Position numbers and translations under genes: made by a program
The notes under the pieces: generated by a model
Database searches by the model: none
What the model was told of the DNA's origin: nothing
Seen by the model: the letters and a program-made list of their open reading frames with translations, nothing else
Shown: in pieces, positions 13,462 to 31,112 of the stretch
Numbering within the stretch: position 1 is the first letter of the stretch
Layout of the letters: each line of letters begins with the position of its first letter
DNA from: Escherichia phage vB_EcoM_Schickermooser
Length of the DNA stretch: 64,000 bases
Sequence record: NC_048196.1
Direction: 5' to 3' (one strand)

Positions 13462-13934
13462 TGGCAGATTTAACTACGATCAAAGTTTCTGATCTTACAC
13501 AAACAACCTCTGTGTCTGATACAGATTTCTTTGTAACAGATCAGGCTGGAATAACAAAGAAAACTTCTTTGAAAGTGCTGTTGAGTGGTGCAGGGGTAAC
13601 TAGAAACCGTCTGAATGCACGGGGAACAGTAACTAGCACCCTGGCATTAGATATTAGTTTGGCAGAATATTTTTCAGCAACTTTATCTTCTGCAACGTGC
13701 ACAATTAGTTTTACTAATATTCCAGTAGCAACAAATGCAGTTTTAAACTTTACTTTAGCTTTGCGTCAAGGAAGTGGTGCAAATAAAGTCGTATGGCCTT
13801 CTTCTGTAAAATGGAGTTTTGGTCGTTCCCCAGTTTTGAGTTATCGTCAAGGTGCAACAGACACTTTTGAGTTTATCAGTTATGATAATGGAGCAACTTG
13901 GACAGGTAGCTTAGTTTTAGCAGGAGTTATTTAA
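13461..13934 (+). CDS. hypothetical baseplate/tail protein
   Basis: 157 aa ORF. Confidence 0.4.
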   Translation: MADLTTIKVSDLTQTTSVSDTDFFVTDQAGITKKTSLKVLLSGAGVTRNRLNARGTVTSTLALDISLAEYFSATLSSATCTISFTNIPVATNAVLNFTLALRQGSGANKVVWPSSVKWSFGRSPVLSYRQGATDTFEFISYDNGATWTGSLVLAGVI

Positions 13935-16810
13935 TGTCAAGAGTTAAGCACAATATTGACAACACGTTTCAGTTGATTGAAGGGTTGGTTCAGTTTTTGG
14001 AAAGAAATACTGGGCTTACCATAGATCCTACGGTTCAGCATTACATTATCAACCCACAAAACGTATTGGCGAACAACAGACACTTTATTAACTGGACAGC
14101 GCAGGAAGGGCAACCAAACGGTGACGCTACTACCGAAGGTCAATCTGTGCTTATCACTGGTTTTGCTTATGCATATTTGGCTACAGGGGATAAAAAATAT
14201 CTTGAATCTGCCGAGAAGTATTGGCAAGCCTATATAGATCACTTCTTCGGGGGCCAACCTATTCCTGATCCTCCGGCTAAGTATCGTCCCAACTGGATCA
14301 TCAATGGTAAAGAACCACGTTTAGCACATTACCCTCTCACAGATGATGGGTATCCTACGCACGGTGGGTTCAAAGGTAGCATGATGACTTGGATTAACGG
14401 AAGGACTGTTATTCCTAAAGGTGCACCGCATTGGGGAGAATACTTAGATAAAGCTTGGTTTGCTTTCAATGGTAATCTTGGTTGGAACTCCGTTAACGCA
14501 ACAGTTTATGCAACTAACCCAGATGGTTCAACTAACTGGAAAGAATATGGAGATCAGTGGGACGTTGAATGGATTATAGATCGTCTAGGACGTAAAGTTG
14601 ATTGGGATGGTAACATTTTATCTACAGGGCACAGCTTCGCAGAATATGGAACAGTGCAACTTAAAAATGCTTCTGTGAACGGTGATTATAAATTCAACTA
14701 CGCTACATGCAACCCTGTAGAACACGGTGGATATCTGCTTAAGCGTAATGAGATGTGGCATAACCGTCCTGTAAACGTTCCGGTAGAGTTAGGCTATCAA
14801 GATAATGCTTCCGATGCTGAAACGTGGTGGTGTGATGCAAACTACTTGATGTATCAGATCACAGGAGAGAGAAAATACTGGCTTTGCTGGCAATCTTCTT
14901 TATTGTTGTGTCAAGACTACTCAAACATCGATATGTTTGATAAATTCTTCCGTAGATCTACGACAGCAATAATTCCTTTTACAGATGGTATCTCGTATGA
15001 TTACTCATACCCATCTACAGCAATACCTAAATATTCTCGTGACGAATTAGGATATACAGTAATTCGCCAAGATGTTTCAGCACAAACAACTCTAGAACAA
15101 CAGGCAGTTTGGTTCAGAGTGGATCAGAATTCAAAACTGCGTATTGAGTTTCAAGGTGTAGATGATGCAGGGGAAGGTGTTCTTTTCCGTCCAGAGTTAG
15201 AATTAAGCAAGACTAAGAGTGAAACAGACACAGTGACATATCGTTGTGGCTTACCTCTTGGTGCAGCTAATATGACTAAGATGGATATACCTTTATCTAG
15301 TTTTATGCGCACCGAACCTCCTGGAGGTGGTGTATATATTATTGCTGAACCTAGAATCATTGTTGACTGGGGAAGCAATACTGTGATACAATATAAATAT
15401 GCAACTGGTATTGCTGGGACAAATAGTGATCAGATAGTTTCTGCTAATATGGATTCAGATGGTGGTTTTACTATTGGATTTTGGTTAACACCAACTAAAA
15501 CAGCCAATTTAAAATCTATTACCTATCGTTCATACGCAGATGATTTTAACATCACTATTACGGATTCCGCAGGTTGGAGATGGTGGGCCATGTTAGAAAA
15601 AACAAATTCTGCATGGGTTACTAAAGTTTTAAGTCCTGCTGATTTCAAATTAAGTACTTGGCAACCTAATCACAATGACACAGAGACAAAACCTTCGTCA
15701 ATAAACCTGACTGCTGTTGATCAGATCAACATTGCATTGGATTCTGAACCTGCAAATGGCTTGACAGGGGCAATCGACTTTTATTGCGTTAACGATATCC
15801 CATCTTTGTATTCTTCAGCCGCTGGTGATGATTACACAATGTATTTCAGGGTTACAGTTTCATCTGAAAATCCTTATACAGCAAAACTTGGAGATTGTAC
15901 AATACTGGACTACAAACTTGACAGTTTGAATTATACTCCAGGAATCATTCCATTTTCCAATATTAGTGATCCTAACACAGCATTATATGACGGTTGGCGT
16001 GGTATTCCTTACCCAGGTTATCAATACCCATCCTTATATTGTTTTAAAGGGAGAGATATTGACTGGGTTCGTATGAACAACAGTATAGACTTTTTATATG
16101 ATTCACAAATGTGGTTTTATAATAAGTTTGCCCCTGTGATGCCTGGGCCAATGGCACAAGCTTATGTTTGGGATCGTTGGGATGCTCATAAATACGGAAA
16201 CAAGAATGAGTTCACAATGTATCATTGGAACGATAAAGCTTGGGATGGTTATGAAGCACGAGCATTCTTCTGTGCATGTCATACAGTATACGAACTGAAA
16301 CAACGAGGAGCAGAAGTTCCTGCAAAACTTTTAACAGTTTGTAAAAACTGGATCAACTATCTGAAATGGTTCCAAGATAACAACGAAGGAAGAACACCAA
16401 CAATATTTTATCCCAATGGAGAAGTGGCTGCGCCTGTAGATGACTTTACAAGTCACATGTCTGCGCTCTTTATGGCGGGATGTGCTATAATGGGGATGGC
16501 TGGATATGATTCAGAAATTCCTAACATTAGAATAGTAGCAGACCGCTGTTTTGAACTTATTCAGGAAAACTATATTGTTCTTGGTCCTAATCACGTCATG
16601 AATGGTTGTTGGAGTGCCGCTCCTAGACCAGACAGTGATAACGGAGTCTTCTTTGGCTTCCACGCTGGAGAGTTGTTACGTGGTTTTGGGTTGTATGCTT
16701 TATACAAAAAACTTAATCCCCAAAATGCATTACCTGTTTTGGATTCGAGCAATATTCCTGCACTTACTGTTTTGACAATGGCAAACATTAGTGTGGACGT
16801 TACCGAGTAA
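13934..16810 (+). CDS. large virion protein (958 aa); possible carbohydrate-active domain
   Basis: Long ORF in baseplate block; W/Y-rich segments; enzymatic domain not verified. Confidence 0.35.
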   Translation: MSRVKHNIDNTFQLIEGLVQFLERNTGLTIDPTVQHYIINPQNVLANNRHFINWTAQEGQPNGDATTEGQSVLITGFAYAYLATGDKKYLESAEKYWQAYIDHFFGGQPIPDPPAKYRPNWIINGKEPRLAHYPLTDDGYPTHGGFKGSMMTWINGRTVIPKGAPHWGEYLDKAWFAFNGNLGWNSVNATVYATNPDGSTNWKEYGDQWDVEWIIDRLGRKVDWDGNILSTGHSFAEYGTVQLKNASVNGDYKFNYATCNPVEHGGYLLKRNEMWHNRPVNVPVELGYQDNASDAETWWCDANYLMYQITGERKYWLCWQSSLLLCQDYSNIDMFDKFFRRSTTAIIPFTDGISYDYSYPSTAIPKYSRDELGYTVIRQDVSAQTTLEQQAVWFRVDQNSKLRIEFQGVDDAGEGVLFRPELELSKTKSETDTVTYRCGLPLGAANMTKMDIPLSSFMRTEPPGGGVYIIAEPRIIVDWGSNTVIQYKYATGIAGTNSDQIVSANMDSDGGFTIGFWLTPTKTANLKSITYRSYADDFNITITDSAGWRWWAMLEKTNSAWVTKVLSPADFKLSTWQPNHNDTETKPSSINLTAVDQINIALDSEPANGLTGAIDFYCVNDIPSLYSSAAGDDYTMYFRVTVSSENPYTAKLGDCTILDYKLDSLNYTPGIIPFSNISDPNTALYDGWRGIPYPGYQYPSLYCFKGRDIDWVRMNNSIDFLYDSQMWFYNKFAPVMPGPMAQAYVWDRWDAHKYGNKNEFTMYHWNDKAWDGYEARAFFCACHTVYELKQRGAEVPAKLLTVCKNWINYLKWFQDNNEGRTPTIFYPNGEVAAPVDDFTSHMSALFMAGCAIMGMAGYDSEIPNIRIVADRCFELIQENYIVLGPNHVMNGCWSAAPRPDSDNGVFFGFHAGELLRGFGLYALYKKLNPQNALPVLDSSNIPALTVLTMANISVDVTE

Positions 16811-16818
16811 GGGGTAAA

Positions 16819-18882
16819 ATGAAACAAGCTATATTTACTGTCACGCGAGACAAGAGAGTAAATGCGAGTTCATTTAACTACACGACTGTTGACGGAACAG
16901 CAGTCGCTGGTAGAGATTATATAGCAAAATCGGGAACACTTGTGTTCCCTGATGATGCTGATTCTGCTACCATTGTGGTTGAAGTATTTGAACGACCAAA
17001 GAACTCAATAGATCTTAACTTCTCCCTCCAAGTTTCAGGGATTAGTCAAAATAACATGATGGTTGAAACGACCATCAATTGTATTATAACTACTATCCAA
17101 GAAAACACTACTCCAATAACTTGGACTACAAAAGACGTTAAAATGTTCTCTCCTATGTATTGGACAATAGACTCTCAAGCAACGGAAAGTTGTTCTATTG
17201 TATCTCATGGAGACTCTTTTACTGCAAGATTTGTAAACAGAACAGCAGCAGGTTTGGCAGGGGTTATCTGGAGCACAGTTGACAAATATGATCACAAAGG
17301 AGTTGGGTATTTACCCCACACAGATTTAAGTTCAGAGAAACTTTGGTTTAAAATGGAAATTAGTCAAAACATGCCAGGTTTTAAAGAAGAACCTTTGGTG
17401 CCGACTTTGACTGTAACTCTCCTGGATAAAAGTGTTCATTATGTCAGTTTAGGATTCTACGCTTCAGATATTTCAGAAGATGGTAAAACAGCCACAATCA
17501 AGTTAGATTTTGGTAATATCTTTTCTGGCCCTAATAATGATATTCCTTTGGATATGAGTGCTGTAGATAATATTTTCTTCTCTTTGATTACAGCAAGGTA
17601 TGAAGAAATAGAAGAGATTGTACCTATTGCCAGTCAAGAGGCTTGGTTTACTTTCACTCTTCTTGAACCTACTTCTGGTTACAGTATGATGAAAGTCAGC
17701 AACCTTGTCCAGCCTGAACATGATATTCGCATGTGCACATCTTATGATGATATGTATAACCTGACTCCAGAGAGAGTTATTTATAATACGTATGCACTAG
17801 GTTATCGTGGAATGATTAACCATTACAACGGAATGTCTCACTATTATGAGTTCTCATGGAACGGAACATCTTGGGCTTTAAATAGATCTGTTTTCCTGAA
17901 TCCGGCTACAGAAGCTTGGCTTAACAGTTTCCATTCTATAGCTAATGAAAATGGCTACACAATAATGAACTCTTTGAGTTTTGAGTTGATGAGCACAGTT
18001 TGTCCTGTAGAATGGGTTCAACATGATTGGAACGATGCTCTTGCAGCAACAGGTTATGAGCCGCCTAGTTATGTGTTATCTCCAACAATTGATGAAGGTA
18101 TGGAATATTTGCAAAATGTTATTAACAAAATAGCATCTATTTCTCAAGCTAACAATATTCCAGTCGTCATTCAAATTGGTGAACCTTGGTGGTGGTATAA
18201 TACAGCAAGTAAAATGCCTTGTATATATGATTACACTACCAAACTAGCATTCAATACAGAAACAGGCTTATTTGCACAAGATGCAGGAACAATAGATAAT
18301 TATAAAACAGGAACACCGTTTGACGAATACTATGCATTTTTGTCTCGTAAACTAGGATTAAGAGTTACAAAGTTTGCAACAGACACTAGAGCAACTTATC
18401 CAGGAGCTAAAGTAACATTGCTTCCGTTCTTACCGTCAATTATTGGCAACGGTTTGATGGAGAAAGTTAACTTTCCGTCTGATTACTACATTCCTGAAGC
18501 TTTTGATTTTTACTGTTCAGAGTGTTACGACTGGCTTCTGGAAGGTAAAATGATGAAAGCATTTGATGCAATTACCATACCACATGAAAAATTAGGTTTT
18601 GAATATTCTGATATTCACTATCTTTCAGGTTTTGTTCCAGATGCTACTCTTGCACCTTTGTATGGCTTCGATCCTGAATCAAACTACCGCACGTATCTTT
18701 GGAAAATGATTATAGGTAATATAGTGTTGAACGCCAATAAGTTCAATGGACTTACACAATATATATGGGCCTATCCTCAAATAATGCACGATTCCATCAC
18801 GGTAGTTAATTCTCAATCCCAAGTTTTCTATATGGGTAACGTGCCTTTGAACGTTTATTTACAGGATACAGTATATGCCTAA
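16819..18882 (+). CDS. large virion protein with N-terminal Calx-beta-like domain
   Basis: N-terminus DGTAVAGRDYIAKSGTLVFPDDADSATIVVEVFER matches Calx-beta-like pattern. Confidence 0.4.
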   Translation: MKQAIFTVTRDKRVNASSFNYTTVDGTAVAGRDYIAKSGTLVFPDDADSATIVVEVFERPKNSIDLNFSLQVSGISQNNMMVETTINCIITTIQENTTPITWTTKDVKMFSPMYWTIDSQATESCSIVSHGDSFTARFVNRTAAGLAGVIWSTVDKYDHKGVGYLPHTDLSSEKLWFKMEISQNMPGFKEEPLVPTLTVTLLDKSVHYVSLGFYASDISEDGKTATIKLDFGNIFSGPNNDIPLDMSAVDNIFFSLITARYEEIEEIVPIASQEAWFTFTLLEPTSGYSMMKVSNLVQPEHDIRMCTSYDDMYNLTPERVIYNTYALGYRGMINHYNGMSHYYEFSWNGTSWALNRSVFLNPATEAWLNSFHSIANENGYTIMNSLSFELMSTVCPVEWVQHDWNDALAATGYEPPSYVLSPTIDEGMEYLQNVINKIASISQANNIPVVIQIGEPWWWYNTASKMPCIYDYTTKLAFNTETGLFAQDAGTIDNYKTGTPFDEYYAFLSRKLGLRVTKFATDTRATYPGAKVTLLPFLPSIIGNGLMEKVNFPSDYYIPEAFDFYCSECYDWLLEGKMMKAFDAITIPHEKLGFEYSDIHYLSGFVPDATLAPLYGFDPESNYRTYLWKMIIGNIVLNANKFNGLTQYIWAYPQIMHDSITVVNSQSQVFYMGNVPLNVYLQDTVYA

Positions 18883-19135
18883 AGAAAGTGGTTTTAAAAA
18901 ATTTATTCGCGGAATGTTCTGCACTTACCCTGGCAACGGGGTAAGCTCTACAAAAGTCTGGAACGCTGTAGGCATGTCTGTTATGACAGGCATGTTTATC
19001 TTTTTAGGAATAGAAAAAGAAATTCCTGAATGGATGGGTTGGGCTTTTGTTTTCATGATAACTCCTTCTCGCCTCATGAAAAATCTTATTGATTTACGCT
19101 GGGGCAGATCACAATCTACCAAAGAGGATGACTAA
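18875..19135 (+). CDS. small membrane protein
   Basis: 86 aa with one hydrophobic segment (VWNAVGMSVMTGMFIFLGI). Confidence 0.4.
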   Translation: MPKESGFKKFIRGMFCTYPGNGVSSTKVWNAVGMSVMTGMFIFLGIEKEIPEWMGWAFVFMITPSRLMKNLIDLRWGRSQSTKEDD

Positions 19136-21263: not shown

Positions 21264-22325
21264 ATGGCGAAGCCAATATATTATCCTGACTGGGCTACAC
21301 AAACTGTAACGCTCCCAGGAACTTTAAACACAAACAAAATTAGACCTAAAGAAACCATCCGCACAGTTGGTATGGATTATGGTCAAATCATGACTTGCGA
21401 AGAAATGAACTGGATTCTTAATAATATCGGTTTATGGATTCGCTATTTGGTGGATGACTTTCTTCCAACTTTACCTAATACCTACTTGCCTTTAGTGGGA
21501 ACTAAGATTACAATGGCAGGTGATGCTACTGGTGAGGCTACTTGGAACGGTAACAAAGAAGTTACTTTATCTATCCAGGTTCAAGATAACAGTCATAATC
21601 ACTTGTCGGCAAACATTACGGATGCCACTAGTTCAACAGTAACACCAAACGTGTTGGTAAAACGTGATGCGGGTGGTGCTATTTATGGTGGTGATGTTTA
21701 TGTTAACGGTACTTCCACAACAGATCCTGCAACACTGTTCTTCAAAAACTTTGCAGGACAAACGAATGGTGAGATTTCTGCCGAGTATCAAAGCGGAGGT
21801 CAGCTTTACATCTACCGTAGAAATCCTAGCACAGGTAGTGTATCGGCAGGTGTTCGTTTATATGATGCAGGTTATGTTCTAATAGATAATCCAAGATCAA
21901 ACAGTGGACAAGACACTTCTAACGGAAATGCTTTAGTTCGTTTAGATTATCTGAACTCTCGTTTGACTTCCCTTCAGAACACATTGCAGACGAATATTAA
22001 CACTGTTCAAAACAACTTGAATAATGTTAACAACAACCTCTCTTCTCGTATAAACAATGTAGAAAGTAATCATCAAAGTCAGATTACAAATAACTACAAC
22101 TATGCTAACGGAACCTTTGTAAGAGATATTCGTTATACTAGCCAAGGTGTGTATTATCCACCAGGGAACGAGGTTTCTTGGACTTATATCTGTTCTTCTG
22201 GTTATGTTCTTTCTGGTATTATCGTACAGGAAACAGGACGTAGCTCTGCGGATAACATCGGTGGGGTTTACTTCAAACGCCTCCAGCGCAACGTTAACGG
22301 AAACTGGTACGATATTGGAGGCTAA
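21264..22325 (+). CDS. tail fiber protein
   Basis: 353 aa; N/Q/T-rich heptad-like stretch (NTLQTNINTVQNNLNNVNNNLSSRINNVESNH); followed by assembly chaperone. Confidence 0.6.
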   Translation: MAKPIYYPDWATQTVTLPGTLNTNKIRPKETIRTVGMDYGQIMTCEEMNWILNNIGLWIRYLVDDFLPTLPNTYLPLVGTKITMAGDATGEATWNGNKEVTLSIQVQDNSHNHLSANITDATSSTVTPNVLVKRDAGGAIYGGDVYVNGTSTTDPATLFFKNFAGQTNGEISAEYQSGGQLYIYRRNPSTGSVSAGVRLYDAGYVLIDNPRSNSGQDTSNGNALVRLDYLNSRLTSLQNTLQTNINTVQNNLNNVNNNLSSRINNVESNHQSQITNNYNYANGTFVRDIRYTSQGVYYPPGNEVSWTYICSSGYVLSGIIVQETGRSSADNIGGVYFKRLQRNVNGNWYDIGG

Positions 22326-22871
22326 ATGATATTTACAAACTTTAAAAAATATATTCCTGAAGACCCTGAACTAAAAGAATTGGTAGAAGCAGAGAACATT
22401 CTTTTTCTTCGTTGCGATCAAGGTTACGATTGGTATGATTTACGTAGCACAGAATTCAATAACGATAAAATGAAAGTCGTTTTTGATGATCAAAATCGTA
22501 TTGTGTTTTGGAATACTGATCCTACACTACTTTGCCCTGAAGATCTTTCTATAGCACAAGTAGACTTTAACATAGATACTTTTGAGGATATTAGGAACAA
22601 GGTTCTGGATTTAGAAACCTTAACTCTTAAGAATAAAGAGTATTCCCGTGAAGAGTTGATGACACAAGCTAGTGCAAAAATTCGCTCTTTACAAGAAACA
22701 GCGGTAGCACTTATAACACCTTTACAGTATGCTAAAGATTTAGAAATGGCTACTGAAGACGAATTAGCTTATCTTAAAAATCTTCAAGTTTATGTAGTTA
22801 AACTAAATCGTGTTCCGCTTCAAAAAGACTATCCTTACGCTATAGATTGGCCTACATTACCGACAGAATAA
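22326..22871 (+). CDS. tail fiber assembly protein
   Basis: 181 aa immediately downstream of fiber gene; conserved-looking C-terminal region (YPYAIDWPTLP). Confidence 0.5.
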   Translation: MIFTNFKKYIPEDPELKELVEAENILFLRCDQGYDWYDLRSTEFNNDKMKVVFDDQNRIVFWNTDPTLLCPEDLSIAQVDFNIDTFEDIRNKVLDLETLTLKNKEYSREELMTQASAKIRSLQETAVALITPLQYAKDLEMATEDELAYLKNLQVYVVKLNRVPLQKDYPYAIDWPTLPTE

Positions 22872-22880
22872 GGGATCACT

Positions 22881-23216
22881 ATGGAATTTCAAGAAGCATG
22901 GGGACTTGCAAAGGATGCAATAATCCCTTTAATCGGAGTCATCTGGTTCTTTTTCAAACAAAAAATGGATAAATTCGGCTCTGATCTTGAGGAAATGGAG
23001 GAGAAAAGTCGAGAGCTAGAGAAGAAGTTGGTCTTTGTTGAATCAACTTATGCAACTAAAGCCGAACTTACCCAGATGCTAAATCAAATTAACTCTACAT
23101 TAATGGCAAATAATAACACCCTTGAGCAAAAAATTGAAAAGATTATGGACCTCAAGAATGCGACTATCCAAATGATGCTAGATGACATAGTTAAACGTAC
23201 ACAGAATAAGGGGTAA
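22881..23216 (+). CDS. membrane-anchored coiled-coil protein
   Basis: N-terminal hydrophobic segment (IIPLIGVIWFFF) followed by charged helical region. Confidence 0.4.
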   Translation: MEFQEAWGLAKDAIIPLIGVIWFFFKQKMDKFGSDLEEMEEKSRELEKKLVFVESTYATKAELTQMLNQINSTLMANNNTLEQKIEKIMDLKNATIQMMLDDIVKRTQNKG

Positions 23217-23219
23217 TTA

Positions 23220-26200
23220 ATGGCAACATTCCCAACATATCCAGCAACGTCTCTCGAACAGGGCGTAGACCTGGTTATTTTCTCATCTAACCAACTCCAT
23301 GATGTTATTAATGGAAGTGCTACAGAGAGTATTGAAACAGAATCAGGGTTGATACCAACCCTGAGAAAAGCCCTTGTTGACAACTTTTTCTTTAAAAGCC
23401 CATTGGATTGGGCGCAAGGCACAAACGAAACAGTTTTTAACCAACTACGTTATTTTCAGAATGGGGTATTGAGCGGTTATTATTATGCTCCTAATGCTAC
23501 ATTGGTAAACCCAATCCCTATGCAAGGTACTCCAGTAGGAGATAACAACTGGGTATTGTGGGGATTGAAGACAGAACAATTGGCAACAGAAGTCACACCT
23601 TGGGTATATTCTGGTGCAACGGGTTATGAAACAGTAATTAGTCCTCCTTACATCTTTGATAGTGCTATTGTTACGATCAATGGTGTTATTCAGGTTCTGG
23701 GGGAAGCTTTCCGTATAGAAGATAGTAAGATCATCTTATCTGAACCTTTGGGACACGATCCTGCAACAGGACTGCCAAACAAACTTTTTGCTTATATTGG
23801 CAAAATCGTAGCTTCAGCAGATACAGATCCTAATCTAGAGAACCGTCTTGTTAGTTTAGAAACAAAAACGGAAGAACTAACAGAAAGTATGGATAAAGTC
23901 CCTCTGCAAACTATTGCTCGTAAGTATGGTTTGTTAGATGATGAGGTGGCTTACGCAACAGCAGGTCAATCGTTAACAGGGATTAAAGCTCTATATGATC
24001 CGGTAGCGCAGTCTTCCTACACATTACCTCCTAACATTACAGGCACTTTAACATCCCTGTCTGTTTCTGGAGTAATGACTTATTCTGGAGGATCTGTAGA
24101 CCTTTCTGCACTGGCTGTTGAGCGTGGACAGTTTGTTCATTTGCCTACAAGCTTTGGTAATAATGTAACTCTGACAGCTAAAAATCAGACGATTGGACGT
24201 GGCGCTGGTCGTTATCGTTGGGCTGGAAGTTTACCAAAAAGTATTTTGGCTTCTGATACATTGGAGACGAGCGGAGGATTAGGTCCAAATGCATGGGTTC
24301 TGACTAATACAGAAGGACTGTTAACCCCTCGTGGTGGAACATACAACGATTTATTCGATGTTGTCTACTTGTCCGAATTTGCTAACAATACAACTACCTA
24401 TACCACACCAGAAGCAGCTTTCCAGGCGGCACTGTTAGCAGCAAAAGCTTCGAAAAGCAAGATTCTCGATGCTTACGGTTGCGATATGACTTTCACGACA
24501 AGCTCTTTTGATATTCAAGGTATCACTTTGCGTGGGGGTGTGTTCCGTGGTCAACGCGACTATCGTGTGCAAAATGCTACGGTAGAAGGCACAACTTTCC
24601 GTAACTCTCGTGTTATGTATTGGGGTGGTGCTGTGCGCATGTTCGATTGTTTATGGGATGGTGCTCCTCGCGCAGGTCAAGTTGGTAGCTTGGTATTCCA
24701 AGGCAACCCAATATCAGGTACTTTTGAAATTGATAATTGTACTTTTAAAAACGGGTTATATGGCATTCTTCAACAAGGAACAGGGGAACCAGTAACACGT
24801 GGTGTCTTCCGTAACCTTACCTTCATGGACATGCAAGGTGATGCAATAGAACTGAACGTCATCAATAAACATTATGACGATGGTTGTGTGATTGAGAATA
24901 TTTACCTGTCTAATATCGATGGAACTAATGCTCCTATTCCTCTGTCGAACTGGGGTATCGGTATCGGTGTAGCTGGTAAAGGACCATATGGTTACGGAAT
25001 TCCTGATGATCAATATTGCAAGAATATTACAATTCGTAACGTTTTTGCAAAACGTTGCCGTCAGATTGTCCACGTAGAAGTTGGTCGTAATATTTCTATC
25101 GAAAACATTCATGGCGATCCAGATCAAACCGTATCTGTTGGGACAGGTTTGGCAACTGGCGCAGTTGTAATGTATGGAAGTAAAGATTTTACGATTGACG
25201 GTGTTTATGGAGAGCCTAAAACAGACGGTAGCACACTTGCAAGTAATATCCGTATGATTTATTTGGAGTGGGGAACTAACGCAGTTCTGGACGAAGAGGG
25301 TAATCCGGTAGTTCCGGCACAGGGTAGACCTTCAAACCCATGTTTTAACTATTCTGTTCGTAACATTCACACCAAAACTGGGCGTGTTTTTGCGGGAGTT
25401 TCCGCTGGGCCAGGTTATGAAAACAGAGTTAGCTTTGAAAATATTCGTTGCGCTGCATTGCAGTTGTTCGGTATAGCTTCTTGGCTTTCAATGTCTAACA
25501 TCACCTGTAATATCTTCGATTGTGTTGGTCAACCTGAATCTGGTCCAGGAACATTTTATGATGGATTCTTCCGTAGAGAAAAATCTGTTCTTGAAATGGT
25601 TAACGTAAACTGTTACCCAGATGGCAAGACGATGGTTACTGGTCGTCCACAGTGGAGCCGTTGCCGTTACTCGGATATTCATCGTGTCAACTGTAATGTT
25701 GAAGCTAATATGTATACCAATATCGCAGGTGGTATTGGAGCTATTGTAGGGACAACGGGCAAAGTTTATTACTTAGAGCCTAATCCTAGTCGAAACATTG
25801 ATGGAATGCATTTCCCAACAGGGAAAGAGTTTGACAAAGGTGATATGATAGTCAAAGCGGATAATACGTTCTTCCTTGTAACAACAAGTGGGGCATATAT
25901 TCCAGATATCCCAGCTTTCGGTATTCGAGCTACACAGGCAGGAGATACCTTCCTGACACAGAACTTGACTCCTAACGGGACAGCAACAAATGCTTCTTGG
26001 TTGTATCATTACCCTCTGTCAGCAGGGACACGTATCCGTATTCCTGGTGCTGGCGTAGGTGGAGCAGATTTGGACACAGTTATTACTCGTGCACCTTATC
26101 AAGATAATGATACGTGGACTAACCCAGTTAAAATAGACATTGCAGATCCAATTGTAACGCCTACAAGTGCTGGAGTTAGAATTAAAACCATACCTAATGA

Positions 26201-26273
26201 TTCCAGTAATGTTTCTGTAGGTAATACTGCGGTTATTCGCCCAACGCCAGTAGTAGATGTGCCAACAACCTAA
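23220..26273 (+). CDS. tailspike protein with right-handed beta-helix (pectate-lyase-like) depolymerase domain
   Basis: 1017 aa; repetitive N/G/T-rich beta-helix-like segments (NCTFKNGLYGI, NITIRNVFAKRC, ISIENIHGD). Confidence 0.65.
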   Translation: MATFPTYPATSLEQGVDLVIFSSNQLHDVINGSATESIETESGLIPTLRKALVDNFFFKSPLDWAQGTNETVFNQLRYFQNGVLSGYYYAPNATLVNPIPMQGTPVGDNNWVLWGLKTEQLATEVTPWVYSGATGYETVISPPYIFDSAIVTINGVIQVLGEAFRIEDSKIILSEPLGHDPATGLPNKLFAYIGKIVASADTDPNLENRLVSLETKTEELTESMDKVPLQTIARKYGLLDDEVAYATAGQSLTGIKALYDPVAQSSYTLPPNITGTLTSLSVSGVMTYSGGSVDLSALAVERGQFVHLPTSFGNNVTLTAKNQTIGRGAGRYRWAGSLPKSILASDTLETSGGLGPNAWVLTNTEGLLTPRGGTYNDLFDVVYLSEFANNTTTYTTPEAAFQAALLAAKASKSKILDAYGCDMTFTTSSFDIQGITLRGGVFRGQRDYRVQNATVEGTTFRNSRVMYWGGAVRMFDCLWDGAPRAGQVGSLVFQGNPISGTFEIDNCTFKNGLYGILQQGTGEPVTRGVFRNLTFMDMQGDAIELNVINKHYDDGCVIENIYLSNIDGTNAPIPLSNWGIGIGVAGKGPYGYGIPDDQYCKNITIRNVFAKRCRQIVHVEVGRNISIENIHGDPDQTVSVGTGLATGAVVMYGSKDFTIDGVYGEPKTDGSTLASNIRMIYLEWGTNAVLDEEGNPVVPAQGRPSNPCFNYSVRNIHTKTGRVFAGVSAGPGYENRVSFENIRCAALQLFGIASWLSMSNITCNIFDCVGQPESGPGTFYDGFFRREKSVLEMVNVNCYPDGKTMVTGRPQWSRCRYSDIHRVNCNVEANMYTNIAGGIGAIVGTTGKVYYLEPNPSRNIDGMHFPTGKEFDKGDMIVKADNTFFLVTTSGAYIPDIPAFGIRATQAGDTFLTQNLTPNGTATNASWLYHYPLSAGTRIRIPGAGVGGADLDTVITRAPYQDNDTWTNPVKIDIADPIVTPTSAGVRIKTIPNDSSNVSVGNTAVIRPTPVVDVPTT

Positions 26274-26278
26274 TGGAA

Positions 26279-26304
26279 TAGAGGGGGATTCCCCCTCTTC
26301 TTCC
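26279..26304 (+). terminator. rho-independent terminator after tailspike
   Basis: GAGGGGG-ATT-CCCCCTC hairpin followed by TTCTTCC. Confidence 0.55.
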
Positions 26305-26334
26305 AATAGAATGGTCTAATGATAGGAGAGATAA

Positions 26335-28359
26335 ATGAATTTAACAAGACCTAATAGTGCGATAGCCGATCTGGTAGAAGCTACTTATCGAAAACGTCGC
26401 AGCTTTGAGGCAGGTTTTACATTACGTAATTCCCGTGAAGTTTTGCTGTTAGCAGCAGAAGGGAATTATTACCAATGGAAAGGAACTTTTCCTAAAGTGG
26501 TTCCAGCAAACTCTACGCCAGCCACCACAGGTGGTATTTCTTCCCTTGCATGGCAAAGTGTTGGGACCGCTGATGATATAGCAATTATCAATGCCAAGTT
26601 TACGGCAATGCAGCAACAAATTGATGATCTGTCGGAAACAATACCTGAAGCTGGTAAATCGGCTTATCAGATCGCACTTGATAATGGTTTTGTTGGAACA
26701 GAAGCACAGTGGCTTGCCTCTTTGAAAGGGGATACTGGTGCTCAACTTAATATTAAAGGATCATTAGCAAGTACTAGTGAACTACCATCCACAGGTAACG
26801 TTGCAGGGGATGGTTATATCGTAGGTGATGTAATCTACGCTTGGGATGGTTCTGTTTGGAAACTTATTTCTTCTCTTGGGCCAGAAGGTAAATCAGCTTA
26901 CGAGGTATGGTTGGCAGATGGTAATACAGGATCTGTTTATGATTTCCTTACCTCTATAAAAGGTGATAAAGGCGATGTTGGTCCTACAGGGCCACAGGGA
27001 GCACCTGGTGTTAACGCCAACGGTTTTGATTATCGTGGAGATTTGCCTTCTACAAGTAACTTACCACAACCTAACTCTGAAAACGTAAGCCAAGCTTATT
27101 CTATCAATGGAAATCTTTATGTCTCTAATGGGACAGCTTGGGTCAACATGGGTAATATTGTTGGTCCTCAAGGTCCACAAGGTGAGGCAGGTAAAGACGG
27201 TCTAGATGGAACAGATGGAGATGAAGGGAAATCTGCATATCAAAGTTGGCTGGATGCTGGTAATGAAGGGACAGAAGTAGATTTTATTGCCTCGCTTAAA
27301 GGTCCAAAAGGAGACAAGGGTGATCAAGGAGAGCAAGGTCCACAAGGTGAATTAGGTCCACAAGGACCAGTAGGTGCAACAGGATCAGGCTTAGAGATTA
27401 TCGGGGTTCTGAACAGCGAAGCTGAACTTCCTCCGACTGGAGAAGTAGGTGACGCATATAAAATTAATAATGATTTATATGTTTGGGTCCAAGATGCTAC
27501 GGAATGGATGAATGTTGGCAGTCTTGGAGGAACATCAATTACAGCTAAAGGTCATGTTCCGAACAGTGAAGCTCTCCCTGTTTACAATAACTATGGTGAT
27601 GCTTACTTAACTGAAGACACTAGTAATCTTTACATCTATACCTACGATCAAGACACCAATTCCGCATCTTTTGTTGACATGGGAAGTATTAAAGGCGACA
27701 AAGGTGAAAAAGGGGATAAAGGAGATAAGGGTGATCCTGGAACAAACGGAACCAACGGTACTGATGGGACCAACGGTAAGGATGGCGCACAGTGGTTTGT
27801 AGCAACAACTAATCCAGTCACAGGAGACGGTGTTATCAATGATTACGCCTTCAATACTACCACTGGAGCAGTATTTAAGAAAACAGATTCTTCTACGTGG
27901 ACACTTATAGGAACTCTTCCTAGTATACCAGAAGCCCCTCAAGACGGCTTGACGTATGGTCGTTCTGATGGAAACTGGATCGAACTATCAGGATCAGATC
28001 CTACGGAAGCTATAACACCAACTAGAGTTACAGCAGGTTTCATGGAACTTGAAACAACTACTGCCAACTCTGGAGCATCTTGGACTCCTTCTGGAACTTC
28101 CAATATGTATGTTGTTACAGTAACTGACGCTCTGACAGTTGGAGCATGGCCTGGTGTCACTGGCTCTACAAAACCTAAAGCGTTTTCAGCAATGATTTAT
28201 TTGATTCAAGATACAACGGGACACACGGTTACACTAGATGCGTCTTATGGAGCACTAAATGATACAGAAATAGCAACTACTGCTAACGCAGTAACAATTT
28301 TGCAATTAACGTATCCTGGTGTGGGTGATATCGTGGACATGGTTGTTGTAACACGATAA
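26335..28359 (+). CDS. tail fiber protein with collagen-like repeats and phage fiber repeats
   Basis: Multiple G-X-Y runs (GPQGPQGEAGKDGLDGTDGDEG; GDKGEKGDKGDKGDPGTNGTNGTDGTNGKDG); three copies of KSAY..WL..GN.G...DF..SLKG repeat. Confidence 0.75.
   Translation: MNLTRPNSAIADLVEATYRKRRSFEAGFTLRNSREVLLLAAEGNYYQWKGTFPKVVPANSTPATTGGISSLAWQSVGTADDIAIINAKFTAMQQQIDDLSETIPEAGKSAYQIALDNGFVGTEAQWLASLKGDTGAQLNIKGSLASTSELPSTGNVAGDGYIVGDVIYAWDGSVWKLISSLGPEGKSAYEVWLADGNTGSVYDFLTSIKGDKGDVGPTGPQGAPGVNANGFDYRGDLPSTSNLPQPNSENVSQAYSINGNLYVSNGTAWVNMGNIVGPQGPQGEAGKDGLDGTDGDEGKSAYQSWLDAGNEGTEVDFIASLKGPKGDKGDQGEQGPQGELGPQGPVGATGSGLEIIGVLNSEAELPPTGEVGDAYKINNDLYVWVQDATEWMNVGSLGGTSITAKGHVPNSEALPVYNNYGDAYLTEDTSNLYIYTYDQDTNSASFVDMGSIKGDKGEKGDKGDKGDPGTNGTNGTDGTNGKDGAQWFVATTNPVTGDGVINDYAFNTTTGAVFKKTDSSTWTLIGTLPSIPEAPQDGLTYGRSDGNWIELSGSDPTEAITPTRVTAGFMELETTTANSGASWTPSGTSNMYVVTVTDALTVGAWPGVTGSTKPKAFSAMIYLIQDTTGHTVTLDASYGALNDTEIATTANAVTILQLTYPGVGDIVDMVVVTR
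26959..27790 (+). repeat. collagen-like G-X-Y triplet repeat tracts (coding)
   Basis: Interrupted Gly-X-Y runs within fiber ORF. Confidence 0.7.
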
Positions 28360-28361
28360 CA

Positions 28362-28388
28362 GAAGCCCCGAAAGGGGCTTTCTTTTTA
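28362..28388 (+). terminator. rho-independent terminator after collagen-like fiber
   Basis: GAAGCCCC-GAAA-GGGGCTTT hairpin followed by TCTTTTTAT. Confidence 0.7.
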
Positions 28389-28400
28389 TGGAGGGTTTAA

Positions 28401-31076
28401 ATGTTTCCAATTCCAATATTTACTATTATGACCAGCACTGGTGTCGTTCCTCTGCCAGCAGGTATTGTTAAAAAAGTAATCACTCTAGATTACCCAGATA
28501 ATGCTGGCAATTCTAATAGCAGTTTAGCAATTTTGCTTAATGATGGTAGATTGTTTACTCAAGGCGCAAACCTTTTTGGTGAGATTGCAGATGGAACTCG
28601 TAGTGCACGATTCAATAATTTCCACTTAGCTTCTACTGTAGTAGCGGATGTGTTTACCGCAGATCGTTGTTTTGTTATTAAAACTAACAGTGGGGGATGG
28701 CAATATTCAGGATTGACAGCAGGGTTGGTAGGATCTATAGCAGCAGGTGGTACGGATGCATGTGTAACCACTTGGACCAGCTTTCCATCTGTAATAACAG
28801 GGACTATCTCTTTAGCCAATCTTAAAGAGGTTAAGGGAGGATATAACAATACTCTCTGGTTAATGAATAGTGGTGTTCTTTATGGATCGGGTCAAAACAC
28901 AGTAGGCAGTTTAGGTGCAAGCACTACTAACGAAGTTTCTACTCCTCGTCAGATAACAAGCGCAGCAGTTGCTTTTGATGCAGGTTACAACCAATGTTCT
29001 TATGTCAACAATGTGGGAACCTTGCGTGTTTGTGGAGCCAGTAAAGGTTTAGCAGGTAATAATAACACAACAACAGCTTTTGTCAATGCCAAGATATCCG
29101 CTACTGAAACAGTGTATGTCAAAGATTACATCAATACAGTTTCCCAGACAATAGTTGTAGGAGATACCTCCGGTGGCACGGGTACAGTAAACTACTTATA
29201 TGTTAGATCTAATACAGAAACAACCTACACTAAACTGGATACCTTTGCAGCAGGTTTCTCAACATGGAAGTTTCCACCAAGCCGCCACTCTTTTTTCGTT
29301 GGGATTAATAATTCCTTGTGGGCTATTGGTAAGAACTACACTGCAAACTTAGGTTTGGGGTATGATTCTGCGAGCGGAGATCCACTCCAAGTGGGAAAAC
29401 CAGTTAAACCTGAAGGAGTGGGTTCTTGGGATATAAACAAGCTCACAAGCGTTCATACGCTGAATATGGATGTTACTAACCAATTAGGTTATCAAGGAAC
29501 CTTTTTCGTTTATAATGGAGATATGTATTATTCCGGTATTTGGAAAGATGGGAAAGCCTCGTATCTGTTCAATAGTGGTCTAAACTATAATAAATTCACA
29601 CCAATAGCAAGCTCCGTGATTACGGGCGATATTCTGGCAACTGGCTTAACTACAGATTCTTTAGGAATTTGTATTGTAGGTGGAACTAAACAGTTGACAC
29701 ATTCTGTTAGCCCAGAAGGAGGTAAACTTTTCAATATTAAATACACTTCTTCTGCCCCTGCAAACATGACAATATCATCTACTGGTTTAATGACTTTCCA
29801 TGCAGAAGGTGGTTTTGATGCAGGTATGACAGCCTTAAACGCTGAAGGAACAACTTTATCAGATACCTCTGGAGGATATGCTTCAACATTGAGCGTTTAC
29901 ACCCCTAGCTTATCTGCGATGGATGTAGGAACAACACAAACAATGGTAGCAGAAATAACGCCAACAGGAGCAGCAAGCTTACCTGGTATGGTTGTTGAGT
30001 ATTTCTCTAATGACCCTACGGTAGCAACAGTTGACCCCGTTACAGGCGTTATTACAGCGGTTGCTGATGGGGATTGTCGTATCGGTTGTAGAGCAACTTA
30101 TCAAGGTGTGGTAACTGCCGAAGATAGTTCTTATCTCGCAGTGAATGCTGTGGTGATTGTGATGGACTATGATTTGACGCAAGAAACTATTCCAACGGAT
30201 GTAAAGGTCAATAGGAGTAACCGTTATGCCAGGGCTTCTGGAGATATCCTTGTACCTACAGAGAGTTCTGCTCCCGTAGCACCTTTAGAATATGTTGGTA
30301 CAACTCCACAAGGTAGACGTGTTGTAGCAGCCAACCGTACACATATCTTTATCAACAATAACTTGACAACAGCTTCCCCGTGGTTGAAGACGAACTTGAC
30401 AGTCACAGCATCAACAATCAACTCTCCGGTTGGAACTACGGCTAACACTTACAAGTTAACACCTTCTACAACTTCAGGACAACATATTTTATCAGCAGTG
30501 AATACAGCCTCTGATATTACAGCAGGTAAGCACTGGGCGGCATCCGTATTCTTGAAGACAGACGGGATCACTAAAGTTAAACTCAAATTGACTTCAGGAG
30601 ATGAGATTAACGAAGGGACTTATGATCTTGTAGCTGGAACATTTACAGGTGCAGATGCAAACATAATCGATATGGGGAATGGTTGGTATCGTGTAATTCT
30701 ACACAAAGTGACAGTTGCCAAACAAGCATCTATAACCTATGAGATTATAGCTTTGAATGCAAGTGGATCAGACACTTTCGCAGGAGATGGTACGGCAGGT
30801 CTTATTGCTTGGGTTCCACAGCTTGAGATGGGTGATATGACAAATCCAGTTTGGGCGGGGACACCATTTGTTTGTTCTTATGCACGAGACACTACCAGTG
30901 CTGTTACCTTCACTATTCCTAAGAATGGACATACTGGCGTGGACATTTACCACACCGATGGTACTGTGCAACGAGAGGTCTTCACTGGTACAGCTACAAC
31001 TTGGATGTTGACGTTCACCGCCGCAAGTGCGGATTGGGGATCGAAGTTCATTACAGGTTTGAAATATTACGACTAA
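28401..31076 (+). CDS. tail fiber / receptor-binding protein with bacterial Ig-like (Big_2-type) domain
   Basis: 891 aa; segment TPTGAASLPGMVVEYFSNDPTVATVDPVTGVITAVADGDCRIGCRATYQGV matches Big_2 pattern. Confidence 0.6.
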   Translation: MFPIPIFTIMTSTGVVPLPAGIVKKVITLDYPDNAGNSNSSLAILLNDGRLFTQGANLFGEIADGTRSARFNNFHLASTVVADVFTADRCFVIKTNSGGWQYSGLTAGLVGSIAAGGTDACVTTWTSFPSVITGTISLANLKEVKGGYNNTLWLMNSGVLYGSGQNTVGSLGASTTNEVSTPRQITSAAVAFDAGYNQCSYVNNVGTLRVCGASKGLAGNNNTTTAFVNAKISATETVYVKDYINTVSQTIVVGDTSGGTGTVNYLYVRSNTETTYTKLDTFAAGFSTWKFPPSRHSFFVGINNSLWAIGKNYTANLGLGYDSASGDPLQVGKPVKPEGVGSWDINKLTSVHTLNMDVTNQLGYQGTFFVYNGDMYYSGIWKDGKASYLFNSGLNYNKFTPIASSVITGDILATGLTTDSLGICIVGGTKQLTHSVSPEGGKLFNIKYTSSAPANMTISSTGLMTFHAEGGFDAGMTALNAEGTTLSDTSGGYASTLSVYTPSLSAMDVGTTQTMVAEITPTGAASLPGMVVEYFSNDPTVATVDPVTGVITAVADGDCRIGCRATYQGVVTAEDSSYLAVNAVVIVMDYDLTQETIPTDVKVNRSNRYARASGDILVPTESSAPVAPLEYVGTTPQGRRVVAANRTHIFINNNLTTASPWLKTNLTVTASTINSPVGTTANTYKLTPSTTSGQHILSAVNTASDITAGKHWAASVFLKTDGITKVKLKLTSGDEINEGTYDLVAGTFTGADANIIDMGNGWYRVILHKVTVAKQASITYEIIALNASGSDTFAGDGTAGLIAWVPQLEMGDMTNPVWAGTPFVCSYARDTTSAVTFTIPKNGHTGVDIYHTDGTVQREVFTGTATTWMLTFTAASADWGSKFITGLKYYD

Positions 31077-31112
31077 TAAAAAAGGGAACCCGCAAAGGTT
31101 CCCTTTTCTTTT
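31077..31112. terminator. bidirectional rho-independent terminator at convergence of late (+) and early (-) modules
   Basis: GGGAACC-cgcaaa-GGTTCCC hairpin flanked by AAAA upstream and TTTTCTTTT downstream. Confidence 0.7.

Follow-up and report, generated by a model that had tools for sequence, protein, structure and literature searches.

Host-recognition proteins in the distal part of the adsorption cluster of Escherichia phage vB_EcoM_Schickermooser

Introduction

The adsorption apparatus of phi92, a Justusliebigvirus, has been published as a "Swiss army knife" of nanometre size, and adsorption in phi92 and Phapecoctavirus is viewed as multivalent (PMC8594841, PMC10844046, PMC13450770). Three sets of fibres have been visualised in phi92: cryo-EM identified gp147 as fiber III, and gp150 is a colanic-acid hydrolase (PMC13450770). 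The placement of gp150 and gp151 in the virion is not settled, and their predicted structures did not fit the density of fiber II (PMC13450770). More generally, the Stephanstirmvirinae carry several sets of fibres and spikes and have a broad host range (PMC10844046, PMC8594841). Proteins of the locus described here have been catalogued as TfpS1, TfpM2, and TfpM1 (PMC12695924).

In phiTE, a Vequintavirinae-like phage (PDB 9CUY), residues 14-171 of the long tail fibre make up the modelled N-terminal part, the region bound to the outer wedge and to the sheath initiator (PMC11972413). Appendages related to a module described below occur in virions as single polypeptides (PMC7296036, PMC12724387).

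Results

The window, a 64,000-nucleotide stretch of NC_048196.1, is from a Phapecoctavirus, a phAPEC8/ESCO13-like myophage of the subfamily Stephanstirmvirinae. Positions 21264-31076 are very probably the distal half of the conserved Phapecoctavirus host-adsorption cluster and the counterpart of phi92 gp147-gp153. Over the full 9.8 kb, this segment was 98-99% identical in nucleotide sequence to >50 deposited phages, including phAPEC8_ev052, Ro121lw, ESCO13, and phAPEC8. Synteny extended gene by gene to phAPEC8, PHB05, and phi92, where the same order is found within gp141-gp153 (orthologues gp147, gp148, gp149, gp150, and gp151). Within the genus, 21264-30151 was conserved at 95-99%. All of the features below lie on the + strand, and the ORF list gave exactly the lengths of 353, 181, 1017, 674, and 891 aa that had been reported for the genes in the first-pass annotation.

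That annotation had counted four receptor-binding proteins, which is an incomplete set: the syntenic locus also encodes proteins of 958 and 687 aa further upstream (13934-18882). The former, a tail protein, is the counterpart of phi92 gp141. The latter corresponds to gp142, combining Calx-beta with an N4 gp65/gp64-like part (Gp64, PDB 9lc0_M, E = 8e-30), minus the last 33 aa. Directly after the 687-aa gene, the variable tailspike slot has been deleted, with the junction at 18868/18875 in comparisons with phAPEC8, ESCO5, AV125, ukendt, and ECO340P1. The slot is likewise empty in Ro121lw, phAPEC8_ev052, and ESCO13, the last of which has been described as lacking the endosialidase (PMC5374246). 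In contrast, phAPEC8 and ESCO5 have an endosialidase in this slot, which corresponds to phi92 gp143.

The 353-aa short tail fibre (21264-22325; PHROG 4465, E = 3e-108) is the orthologue of phi92 gp147. Residues 1-271 were 76% identical to gp147, whereas the C-terminal tip had no similarity to that of gp147. Instead, aa 286-353 matched the tip of the phiTE short tail fibre (PDB 9cuy_c, E = 5e-23). The protein is Mu-S-like and consists of a conserved N-terminal 271 aa and an exchanged tip. It is very probably folded by a chaperone of the lambda-gpK type: the next gene (22326-22871) encodes a 181-aa tail fibre assembly chaperone (Pfam Caudo_TAP, E = 5e-13; PHROG 136, E = 7e-42), bearing out the reported pairing of fibre and chaperone. 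The gene that follows (22881-23216) was absent from the first-pass annotation. It encodes a 111-aa membrane protein annotated as 'lipoprotein' (PHROG 15210, E = 4e-70) and equivalent to phi92 gp149; the protein has a hydrophobic helix at its N-terminus as well as a coiled coil. Its position between chaperone and tailspike is kept in phAPEC8, PHB05, and phi92.

The tailspike gene (23220-26273) encodes 1017 aa. Its N-terminal baseplate-anchor module (aa 1-195; 23220-23804) was 79% identical to that of phi92 gp150, and aa 11-127 matched residues 14-132 of the phiTE long tail fibre (PDB 9cuy_g, E = 2.6e-19). The first ~130 residues are homologous to the N-terminus through which the phiTE fibre is attached to the wedge and sheath initiator of the baseplate. 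The two phages differ in that the 793-aa phiTE fibre unites the anchor with a C-terminal knob, whereas here these are on two proteins and the anchor bears an enzyme. The anchor is followed by an insert (aa ~196-425; 23805-24494) composed of a coiled coil, with a helix at 204-235 in the AlphaFold2 model, and CBA120/G7C-type N-terminal domains. Specifically, aa 226-370 matched CBA120 TSP1/TSP3/TSP4, G7C gp63.1, and Shigella phage B2 Gp48 (PDB, E = 1e-24 to 1e-30), and Pfam Tail_spike_N was found at aa 302-361 (E = 2e-9). Homologues of the tailspike have two architectures: ~1010-1060 aa with PF18668, and ~804 aa without it. The phi92-type 804-aa protein lacks the ~210-aa insert.

The remainder of the tailspike (aa ~426-1017; 24495-26273) is made up of a depolymerase body with a right-handed beta-helix fold and a C-terminal domain, and belongs to the colanidase family. 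Residues 426-1000 matched crystallised phi92 gp150 (PDB 6E0V, E = 1.4e-79), and Foldseek ranked the same structure first for the AlphaFold2 model (E = 2e-37, TM(target) = 0.67), followed by the tailspikes of CBA120, Sf6, and HK620 and by PL6 lyases. The body also matched PHROG 6117 (E = 1e-282), a family annotated 'colanic acid degradation'. The beta-helix tailspike proposed earlier is thus upheld, and we predict with high confidence that the protein is an exopolysaccharide depolymerase of the phi92 colanidase family.

The substrate may nevertheless differ from that of the colanidase, because the catalytic body was only 22-52% identical to gp150 by block (~33% overall). DNA similarity to phi92 stopped at 23805, was lost over 23806-26323, including the enzyme region, and returned at 26324. 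Moreover, the ~200-aa N-terminus fronts many proteins with different enzymatic C-termini in related phages. These data would be in keeping with a tailspike that degrades a non-colanic polysaccharide, such as O-antigen or group 1/4 capsule, to which the name 'colanic acid-degrading' was carried over by annotation. We consider this rather unlikely. The best-conserved blocks (aa 515-634, 50%; aa 901-1000, 52%) cover central turns of the beta-helix and hold the motifs GDAIELNV and NWGIGIGVAG. Further, in the nearest clusters of homologues, found on contigs of phage size (~150 kb), the tailspike was 84-100% conserved, which is consistent with a target that is ubiquitous, e.g., colanic acid.

The 674-aa protein (26335-28359) was 60% identical to phi92 gp151 over its full length. 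It comprises an N-terminal Tail_spike_N domain (aa 12-77, Pfam E = 1.5e-19), four or five beta modules of ~45 aa, and a C-terminal knob, and it matched Pfam Collagen (E = 4e-12), with four G-X-Y runs of 6, 8, 10, and 11 triplets. The three KSAY motifs claimed for this fibre are present, at aa 108, 186, and 299, and the copies shared 13-17 of 29 residues pairwise as compared to ≤11 in 20 shuffles. The exact repeat pattern given with that claim fits copies 2 and 3 only. Its C-terminus (aa 561-671) matched that of the phiTE long tail fibre (9cuy_g 681-790, E = 4e-8). The reading of the protein as a collagen-like fibre is borne out; its build is that of beads on a string, with an N-terminal domain of the tailspike type.

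Domains of the Tail_spike_N or D1-D2 type, present in the tailspike as well as in the 674-aa protein, recall the branched complexes of CBA120 (Ackermannviridae) and G7C. By this comparison, the tailspike alone would be fixed to the wedge, and its aa ~226-370 would carry the 674-aa fibre, which docks via its own Tail_spike_N. We regard this arrangement as doubtful; it would be a refinement of the best explanation, with which it is compatible. The order of domains in the tailspike, a wedge anchor like that of the phiTE long fibre and then N-terminal domains like those of CBA120 TSP1/3/4 and G7C gp63.1, agrees with it. So does the 674-aa protein, which starts nearly at Tail_spike_N and has no recognisable wedge anchor, and so does the phi92 map, in which fiber II is suspended from the base of fiber I (PMC13450770). 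However, phi92 gp150 (804 aa) is without the PF18668 insert although phi92 gp151 has the matching N-terminus; thus, the insert is not a universal docking site. In addition, only a weak match (6w4q, E = 1e-7) was obtained to the branching domains that resemble T4 gp10 in CBA120 TSP2/TSP4, and, apart from belonging to another virion family, the branched complexes differ in their TSP2/TSP4-style multi-XD hub, which is not evident here. Structure models were of AlphaFold2 monomers, for which oligomeric state and partner binding are out of reach.

The 891-aa ORF (28401-31076) consists of a conserved and an exchangeable part. The conserved part (28401-30151) contains an RCC1-like seven-blade propeller (aa ~1-400) and two Ig-like/Big_2 domains (aa ~410-582), with pLDDT mostly >85 in the AlphaFold2 model. 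Pfam reported WD40_RLD/RCC1 and Big_2 (E = 4e-10), and the propeller matched UVR8, RCC1, and HERC2 in Foldseek at E down to 2e-14 and TM(target) ~0.7. In 38 homologues, the first 65% of the protein was conserved. The exchangeable part (30152-31076) is a disordered linker (aa 584-650) and a beta-sandwich module (aa ~650-891) homologous to Sf11 gp17 residues 195-455 (PDB, E = 1e-20) and the RcGTA head fibre Rcc01080 (PDB, E = 3e-14); other homologues have different C-termini, e.g., DUF285 and PKD. In RcGTA, each head spike bears a single Rcc01080 subunit; in Sf11, every subunit of Dit (gp17) has an appendage of its own. These systems differ from the present one in N-terminal attachment, as here the module sits on the propeller and two Ig domains. 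Of the earlier label "Ig-like-domain fiber", the Ig-like domain stands; the model has no fibre shaft, and the protein as modelled does not qualify as a conventional trimeric fibre. It is very probably an accessory adhesin with an exchangeable module of a glycan-binding type. The gene is intact here, whereas its phi92 counterpart is only two small ORFs, gp152 and gp153; thus, it is dispensable for the phi92 virion.

A reading in which the 891-aa protein, perhaps together with the 674-aa protein, is not a tail receptor-binding protein appears quite unlikely. Under it, the protein would be attached to the head or neck as a decoration or an adhesin, or would be no part of the virion. Homology of the 891-aa C-terminal module to a head spike fibre is in keeping with such a role, and phi92 gp151, which misfits the tail fibre density, has been reported to resemble the Pa223 phage head spike, gp52, in structure (PMC13450770). 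The phi92 record labels the gp151 N-terminus 'potential capsid binding domain', and RCC1-like propellers of other phages are annotated as DNA-condensation proteins. Nevertheless, both genes lie within the tail-fibre operon, and the C-terminal module is found on the Sf11 tail tip and in an annotated tail fibre of RcapMu. Tail_spike_N elsewhere occurs on tail-mounted spikes, and aa 1-185 of the 891-aa protein are found again in the product of a Vequintavirus gene whose annotation is lateral tail fibre protein. Finally, C-terminal alleles of the 891-aa protein are swapped between near-identical phages, as is typical of host-range determinants. The tail-associated adhesin remains the preferred reading.

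The genes had been described as each separated by terminator hairpins. GC-rich hairpins do follow the last three genes, but the gaps among the short fibre, chaperone, 111-aa, and tailspike genes are 0-9 nt and contain none. The hairpin 3' of the tailspike gene (26283-26301) is GC-rich, with an 8-bp stem, 3-nt loop, and poor U-tract, and was not called by the terminator scan. Its stem lies within a longer helix of the 61-nt spacer (26274-26334; MFE -21.3 kcal/mol, z = -1.3). At the 674-aa/891-aa junction, an intrinsic-terminator-like hairpin with a U-tract (28362-28381; -15.2 kcal/mol, z = -2.0) is at a position equivalent to that of an annotated terminator in phAPEC8. The late tail operon ends in a strong bidirectional terminator (31080-31107; -18.4 kcal/mol, z = -5.2) with an 11-bp stem between A- and T-tracts, where the sign of the GC skew flips. 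In phi92, the end of the late operon likewise precedes divergent replication genes.

The suggestion that these genes are exchanged horizontally proved sound, but not with terminator-bounded genes as the units: in the phage comparison, the breakpoints were intragenic and at domain boundaries. They were located at aa 584/585 of the 891-aa gene, at ~aa 195 of the tailspike, and at the C-terminal tip of the short fibre. In two exchange cassettes, a terminator hairpin was present at the right-hand edge only. For the 891-aa protein, tblastn coverage ended at aa 584 in approximately half of the relatives. In ESCO5, DNA similarity was absent exactly across 30152-31104, and ESCO5-type phages have another C-terminal module on this protein.

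Discussion

The presence of several different host-recognition proteins, and hence multivalent adsorption, had been proposed from the first reading of the DNA and agrees with the published view of phi92 and Phapecoctavirus and with the fold and homology results. The cluster is a late, co-oriented operon ending in the bidirectional terminator. By analogy with phi92, phiTE, CBA120, and RcGTA, the baseplate wedges would bear six copies of each trimeric component. Surface glycans may be touched reversibly by the collagen fibre and by the 891-aa adhesin, the tailspike may remove colanic-acid-like slime or capsule, and binding of the short fibre to the LPS core may trigger contraction.

As it is almost identical to that of dozens of sequenced phages, this host-recognition cluster is real but ordinary, and it was already known. 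Of remaining value are the 891-aa adhesin, which is uncharacterised, and the phiTE-based clue to how the tailspike is anchored. Host range would evolve by swaps of distal domains, namely the tip of the short fibre, the body of the tailspike beyond aa ~195, the C-terminus of the 891-aa protein beyond aa 584, and the tailspike slot located upstream, empty in the present phage.

Gene content and conservation of the locus

An ORF scan of 21264-31076 placed the following genes on the + strand: a 353-aa short fibre (21264-22325), its 181-aa chaperone (22326-22871), a 111-aa protein (22881-23216), a 1017-aa tailspike (23220-26273), a 674-aa collagen-like fibre (26335-28359), and an 891-aa propeller-Ig protein (28401-31076). 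All but the 111-aa gene had been described in the first-pass annotation, and the coordinates and lengths of those five ORFs were exact to the base. The 111-aa protein, situated between chaperone and tailspike, has a hydrophobic N-terminal helix and a coiled coil, and is kept in phi92 as gp149, where it is labelled 'lipoprotein'. Opposite-strand ORFs of 95-123 aa in the region were judged spurious solely on the grounds of their position within strongly supported genes.

Using megablast, the 9.8-kb region matched 89 phage records, 67 of which cover at least 80% of the query. The nucleotide identity was 99.1% for phAPEC8_ev052, 99.0% for vB_EcoM-Ro121lw, 98.5% for ESCO13, and 98.1% for phAPEC8, the type phage of Phapecoctavirus (Stephanstirmvirinae). 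Annotations and a BLAST map indicated that the gene order, wedge protein, short fibre, chaperone, small protein, tailspike, collagen fibre, last tail protein, is kept in phAPEC8, PHB05, phi92, and ESCO5. The synteny with the sister genus Justusliebigvirus (PHB05, phi92) is gene for gene: the phi92 counterparts are gp147 (short fibre), gp148 (chaperone), gp149 (small 'lipoprotein'), gp150 (colanidase tailspike), and gp151 (collagen-like fibre), followed by the gp152/gp153 position. By identity and gene order, the region is the adsorption locus of the phi92/phAPEC8-type Stephanstirmvirinae, with an unfilled variable tailspike slot upstream. The locus is near-identical in dozens of GenBank phages and does not represent a novel kind of system. 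Accounts of the multi-fibre apparatus go back to 2012, and further work on it appeared in 2021-2026 (PMC8594841, PMC10844046, PMC12695924, PMC13450770); proteins of the locus have been catalogued as TfpS1, TfpM2, and TfpM1 (PMC12695924).

The sign of the GC skew flips just past 31 kb, at the junction of the late operon with the oppositely transcribed replication genes. The G+C content is 0.43 at 24001-28000, spanning the tailspike body and the collagen fibre, versus 0.38-0.40 in the flanks. This rise fits either a separate origin of these modules or the many glycine and proline codons that the collagen repeats require.

Short fibre, chaperone and upstream proteins

The proposal of a short fibre with its assembly chaperone was upheld: the 353-aa protein matched PHROG 4465 ('tail fiber', E=3e-108) and the 181-aa protein matched the Caudo_TAP chaperone family (Pfam, E=5e-13). 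The chaperone gene lies directly 3' of the short-fibre gene in an arrangement of the Mu S/U type, and homology of the locus to Mu GpS/GpU has been stated (PMC8594841). Over residues 1-271, the short fibre is 76% identical to phi92 gp147. The final ~80 residues bear no relation to phi92 and match the tip of the short tail fibre (STF) of phiTE (PDB 9cuy_c, E=5e-23); the tip has therefore been swapped. In the cryo-EM structure of phi92, gp147 is assigned to fiber III, which points downward and sits on the wedge protein gp145 (PMC13450770).

Upstream, the 687-aa homologue of phi92 gp142 (16819-18882) contains a Calx-beta domain, an N4 gp65-like N-terminal domain, and an N4 gp64-like TIM barrel (PDB 9lc0_M, E=8e-30). 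It is a further candidate receptor-binding protein. It may be the component tied to enterobacterial common antigen in the BASEL study, which linked this antigen to relatives of the protein (PMC8594841). The 958-aa 'tail protein' (13934-16810; phi92 gp141, 'TfpL') is the largest conserved protein of the locus, and searches of Pfam and of PDB sequences returned no match to it.

Tailspike

Both homology and modelling bear out the first-pass reading of the 1017-aa protein as a beta-helix depolymerase, which we consider sound at the level of prediction. Residues 426-1000 and the body of the crystallised colanidase (6E0V, E=1.4e-79) are homologous. The AlphaFold2 model (mean pLDDT 71, body mostly 80-95) has regular short strands at aa 415-800 in a parallel beta-helix fold. 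Foldseek ranked 6E0V as the best match to the model (E=2e-37, TM 0.67), and the matches behind it were all beta-helix tailspikes or lyases (CBA120 TSPs, Sf6, HK620, and PL6 lyases). The Pfam Beta_helix match was sub-threshold (E=0.009). Because the identity of phi92 gp150 to the body is just 22-52% by block (50% in aa 515-634), colanic acid is a putative substrate. A literature search found no paper giving the catalytic residues of gp150.

Residues 1-195 share 79% identity with phi92 gp150, and residues 11-127 align with the long tail fibre (LTF) of phiTE in the solved baseplate, over LTF residues 14-132 (PDB 9cuy_g, E=2.6e-19). This ~200-residue head recurs on many metagenomic proteins with pectate-lyase, NosD, GDSL, and other C-termini; residues 1-195 therefore constitute a constant anchor. 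Residues ~196-425 are an insertion relative to the phi92-type 804-aa protein. The insert has a long helix at 204-235 in the AlphaFold2 model and a Pfam Tail_spike_N match (E=2e-9); it also holds homologues of the N-terminal domains of CBA120 TSP1/3/4 and G7C gp63.1 (E=1e-26 to 1e-30).

Collagen-like fibre

The 674-aa protein, with 60% identity to phi92 gp151 from end to end, conformed to its earlier description as a collagen-like fibre with three KSAY...SLKG repeats. The 29-residue motif GKSAY...SLKG occurs at aa 106, 184, and 297, the copies sharing 13-17 of 29 residues pairwise versus at most 11 in shuffles. Four G-X-Y runs of 6, 8, 10, and 11 triplets (aa 210-225, 277-298, 323-350, and 454-484) and a Pfam Collagen match (E=4e-12) predict uninterrupted stretches long enough for a triple helix. 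The protein also contains four or five modules, each ~45 residues long and following the pattern LP..G..GDAY..LY.W...W..G, as well as a C-terminal domain (aa 561-671) resembling that of the phiTE LTF. Its N-terminal Tail_spike_N match (aa 12-77, E=1.5e-19) is a predicted virion-attachment domain.

The D1/D2 domains (PF18668) of the branched CBA120 and G7C tailspikes occur in both the tailspike (aa 226-370) and the collagen-like fibre (aa 12-77). The fibre may hang from the inserted domains of the tailspike in a CBA120-style branch. For a T4 gp10-like XD hub, the match of tailspike aa 215-315 to full-length TSP2 was weak (6w4q, E=1e-7). However, phi92 has gp151 and lacks the tailspike insert, which counts against such a branch as a general mechanism.

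The 891-aa protein

Described in the first-pass annotation as an Ig-like-domain fibre, the 891-aa protein does have Ig-like domains, but its model is not that of a fibre. In the AlphaFold2 model (mean pLDDT 77), aa ~1-400 form a seven-blade RCC1-like propeller (Foldseek matches to UVR8, RCC1, and HERC2; E to 2e-14, TM ~0.7). Two Ig-like domains (aa ~410-582; Pfam Big_2, E=4e-10) and a disordered linker (aa 584-650) precede a beta-sandwich module extending to the C-terminus. No trimerising shaft, whether coiled coil, triple beta-helix, or collagen, was present in the model, so that the protein does not resemble a canonical trimeric fibre. Searching the literature for phage tail proteins with RCC1-like propellers returned nothing relevant.

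The terminal module matched the C-terminal 'extra appendage' of Sf11 gp17 (PDB 9occ_C, E=1e-20). Sf11 is a Shigella siphophage, with gp17 as its distal tail protein (Dit). The module also matched Rcc01080, the head spike fibre of RcGTA (E=3e-14). In RcGTA, one Rcc01080 subunit is present per head spike and mediates capsule binding (PMC7296036); the Dit of Sf11 forms a hexameric ring whose subunits bear one appendage each (PMC12724387). Both papers describe the solved homologue of the module as a single polypeptide.

What the protein shares with fibres is a conserved proximal part (aa 1-584) and an exchangeable distal part (aa 585-891), the latter being replaced in metagenomic homologues as well as in ESCO5-type phages. 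Among 38 homologues, the first 65% is conserved and the C-terminus is variable (e.g., DUF285, PKD). Within Phapecoctavirus, ESCO5-type phages diverge from the window exactly over 30152-31104, corresponding to aa 585-891 and the terminator. Judging from this pattern of conservation, the protein still appears to behave like a host-range determinant despite its shaftless model. In PHB05, the counterpart has 939 aa and its propeller is replaced. In phi92, by contrast, all that stands for the gene (at 21321-22983 of the phi92 stretch) is a pair of small ORFs, gp152 (202 aa, Big_2) and gp153 (295 aa), which are separated by a 166-nt gap and lack the propeller. This pair looks like a decayed or reduced form of a gene that PHB05 carries intact.

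Hairpins and exchange boundaries

Three GC-rich stem-loops were found in the region. The first, at 26283-26301, has an 8-bp stem and a U-poor tail (UCUUCC), was missed by the scanner, and gave z=-1.3 for the folded 61-nt spacer. The other two combine a stem with a U-tract: 28362-28381 (z=-2.0), where a terminator is annotated in phAPEC8, and 31080-31107 (z=-5.2), which is flanked by A and T tracts. The three upstream junctions contained no hairpin, the first four genes being 0-9 nt apart and the junctions unstructured. The idea that terminators separate each of the genes was thus half right: it applies at 28362-28381 and 31080-31107, not at the upstream junctions, and 26283-26301 is U-poor. 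A scanner site at 22161-22181, within the short-fibre ORF, was discounted as a coincidental match. The total of 15 terminator-like sites is what shuffles lead one to expect (12.9 ± 3.2). The strong hairpin at 31080-31107 lies at the meeting point of the late genes (+ strand) and the replication genes (- strand) and probably acts as a bidirectional terminator. The ESCO5-type cassette swap has its right-hand border at this hairpin.

Modular exchange was likewise predicted, and comparison with relatives confirmed that exchange occurs; the units, however, are domains inside genes rather than terminator-bounded genes. Conservation within the genus is a uniform 95-99% over 21264-30151. In the tailspike, the breakpoint falls after aa ~195: DNA similarity with phi92 stops at 23805 and restarts at 26324. 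Other breakpoints at domain borders are at aa 584/585 of the 891-aa protein and at the short-fibre tip. Since breakpoints relative to phAPEC8, ESCO5, PHB05, and phi92 lie within genes, terminator-bounded cassettes were rejected as a general rule. Just two swapped segments have a hairpin at a border, in each case the right one (26324 and 31105).

From the genome comparisons, the true exchange hot spot is outside the region, in the slot between the gp142 and gp144 homologues. The slot tailspikes of relatives are different proteins of 537-922 aa with a common ~50-aa N-terminus (MSTTITNLPETSKVNGSDYLVLDQ...). In phAPEC8, ESCO5, and phi92 the slot encodes an endosialidase; in AV125, ukendt, and ECO340P1 it holds other spikes, which range from 537 to 805 aa. 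In the window, the slot tailspike is deleted together with the 33 conserved residues that end the gp142 homologue, with the junction at 18868/18875 (within 16819-19135). Because the slot spikes share their ~50-aa N-terminus, the lost gp142 tail might be their docking site. ESCO13 carries the same slot deletion, and its endosialidase has been reported as missing (PMC5374246). The empty slot is a known natural variant and no ground for exclusion from the genus. As to its consequences, phAPEC8 and ESCO5 have a K1-capsule-digesting endosialidase, whereas the window phage does not; the authors of the ESCO13 study proposed that, without this enzyme, ESCO13 reaches its receptor on K1 strains less well than does ESCO5 (PMC5374246).

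Implications

This analysis established which genes the locus contains, the folds and homologies of their products, and where exchange has occurred; a likely mode of action can be proposed by analogy with phi92, phiTE, CBA120, and RcGTA. The tailspike would dock on the wedge and sheath initiator and clear colanic-acid-like exopolysaccharide. The collagen fibre and the 891-aa protein would make reversible glycan contacts, and the short fibre would bind the LPS core and pass on the contraction trigger.

Two residual points merit attention: the non-fibrous architecture of the 891-aa protein and the phiTE-type anchor of the gp150 family. The 891-aa protein ('TfpM1') is predicted to run from an RCC1-like propeller through two Ig domains and a flexible linker to an exchangeable module, which it has in common with the RcGTA head fibre and the Sf11 Dit appendage. 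Taken jointly, it is possible, if somewhat short of probable, that this protein is a non-fibrous, probably monomeric accessory adhesin and that the gp150-type tailspike is bolted on through its phiTE LTF-like N-terminus. Neither reading was found stated in the literature examined.

The locus is a textbook case of multivalent host recognition, the property for which these phages go into therapy and biocontrol cocktails. For host-range engineering, precise boundaries are available at aa ~195 in the tailspike, at aa 584/585 in the 891-aa protein, and past aa ~271 at the short-fibre tip; the upstream slot, whose spikes have a 50-aa adaptor in common, could also be used. If the above readings are correct, the 891-aa adhesin would represent a kind of host-range determinant not yet characterised, present in Phapecoctavirus and in PVP-SE1-like phages. 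Similarly, anchoring to the wedge and sheath initiator would put the gp150-type tailspike at the root of the unassigned lateral fibre density of phi92-like virions, the phiTE homology being a testable hint on the placement of gp150 and gp151.
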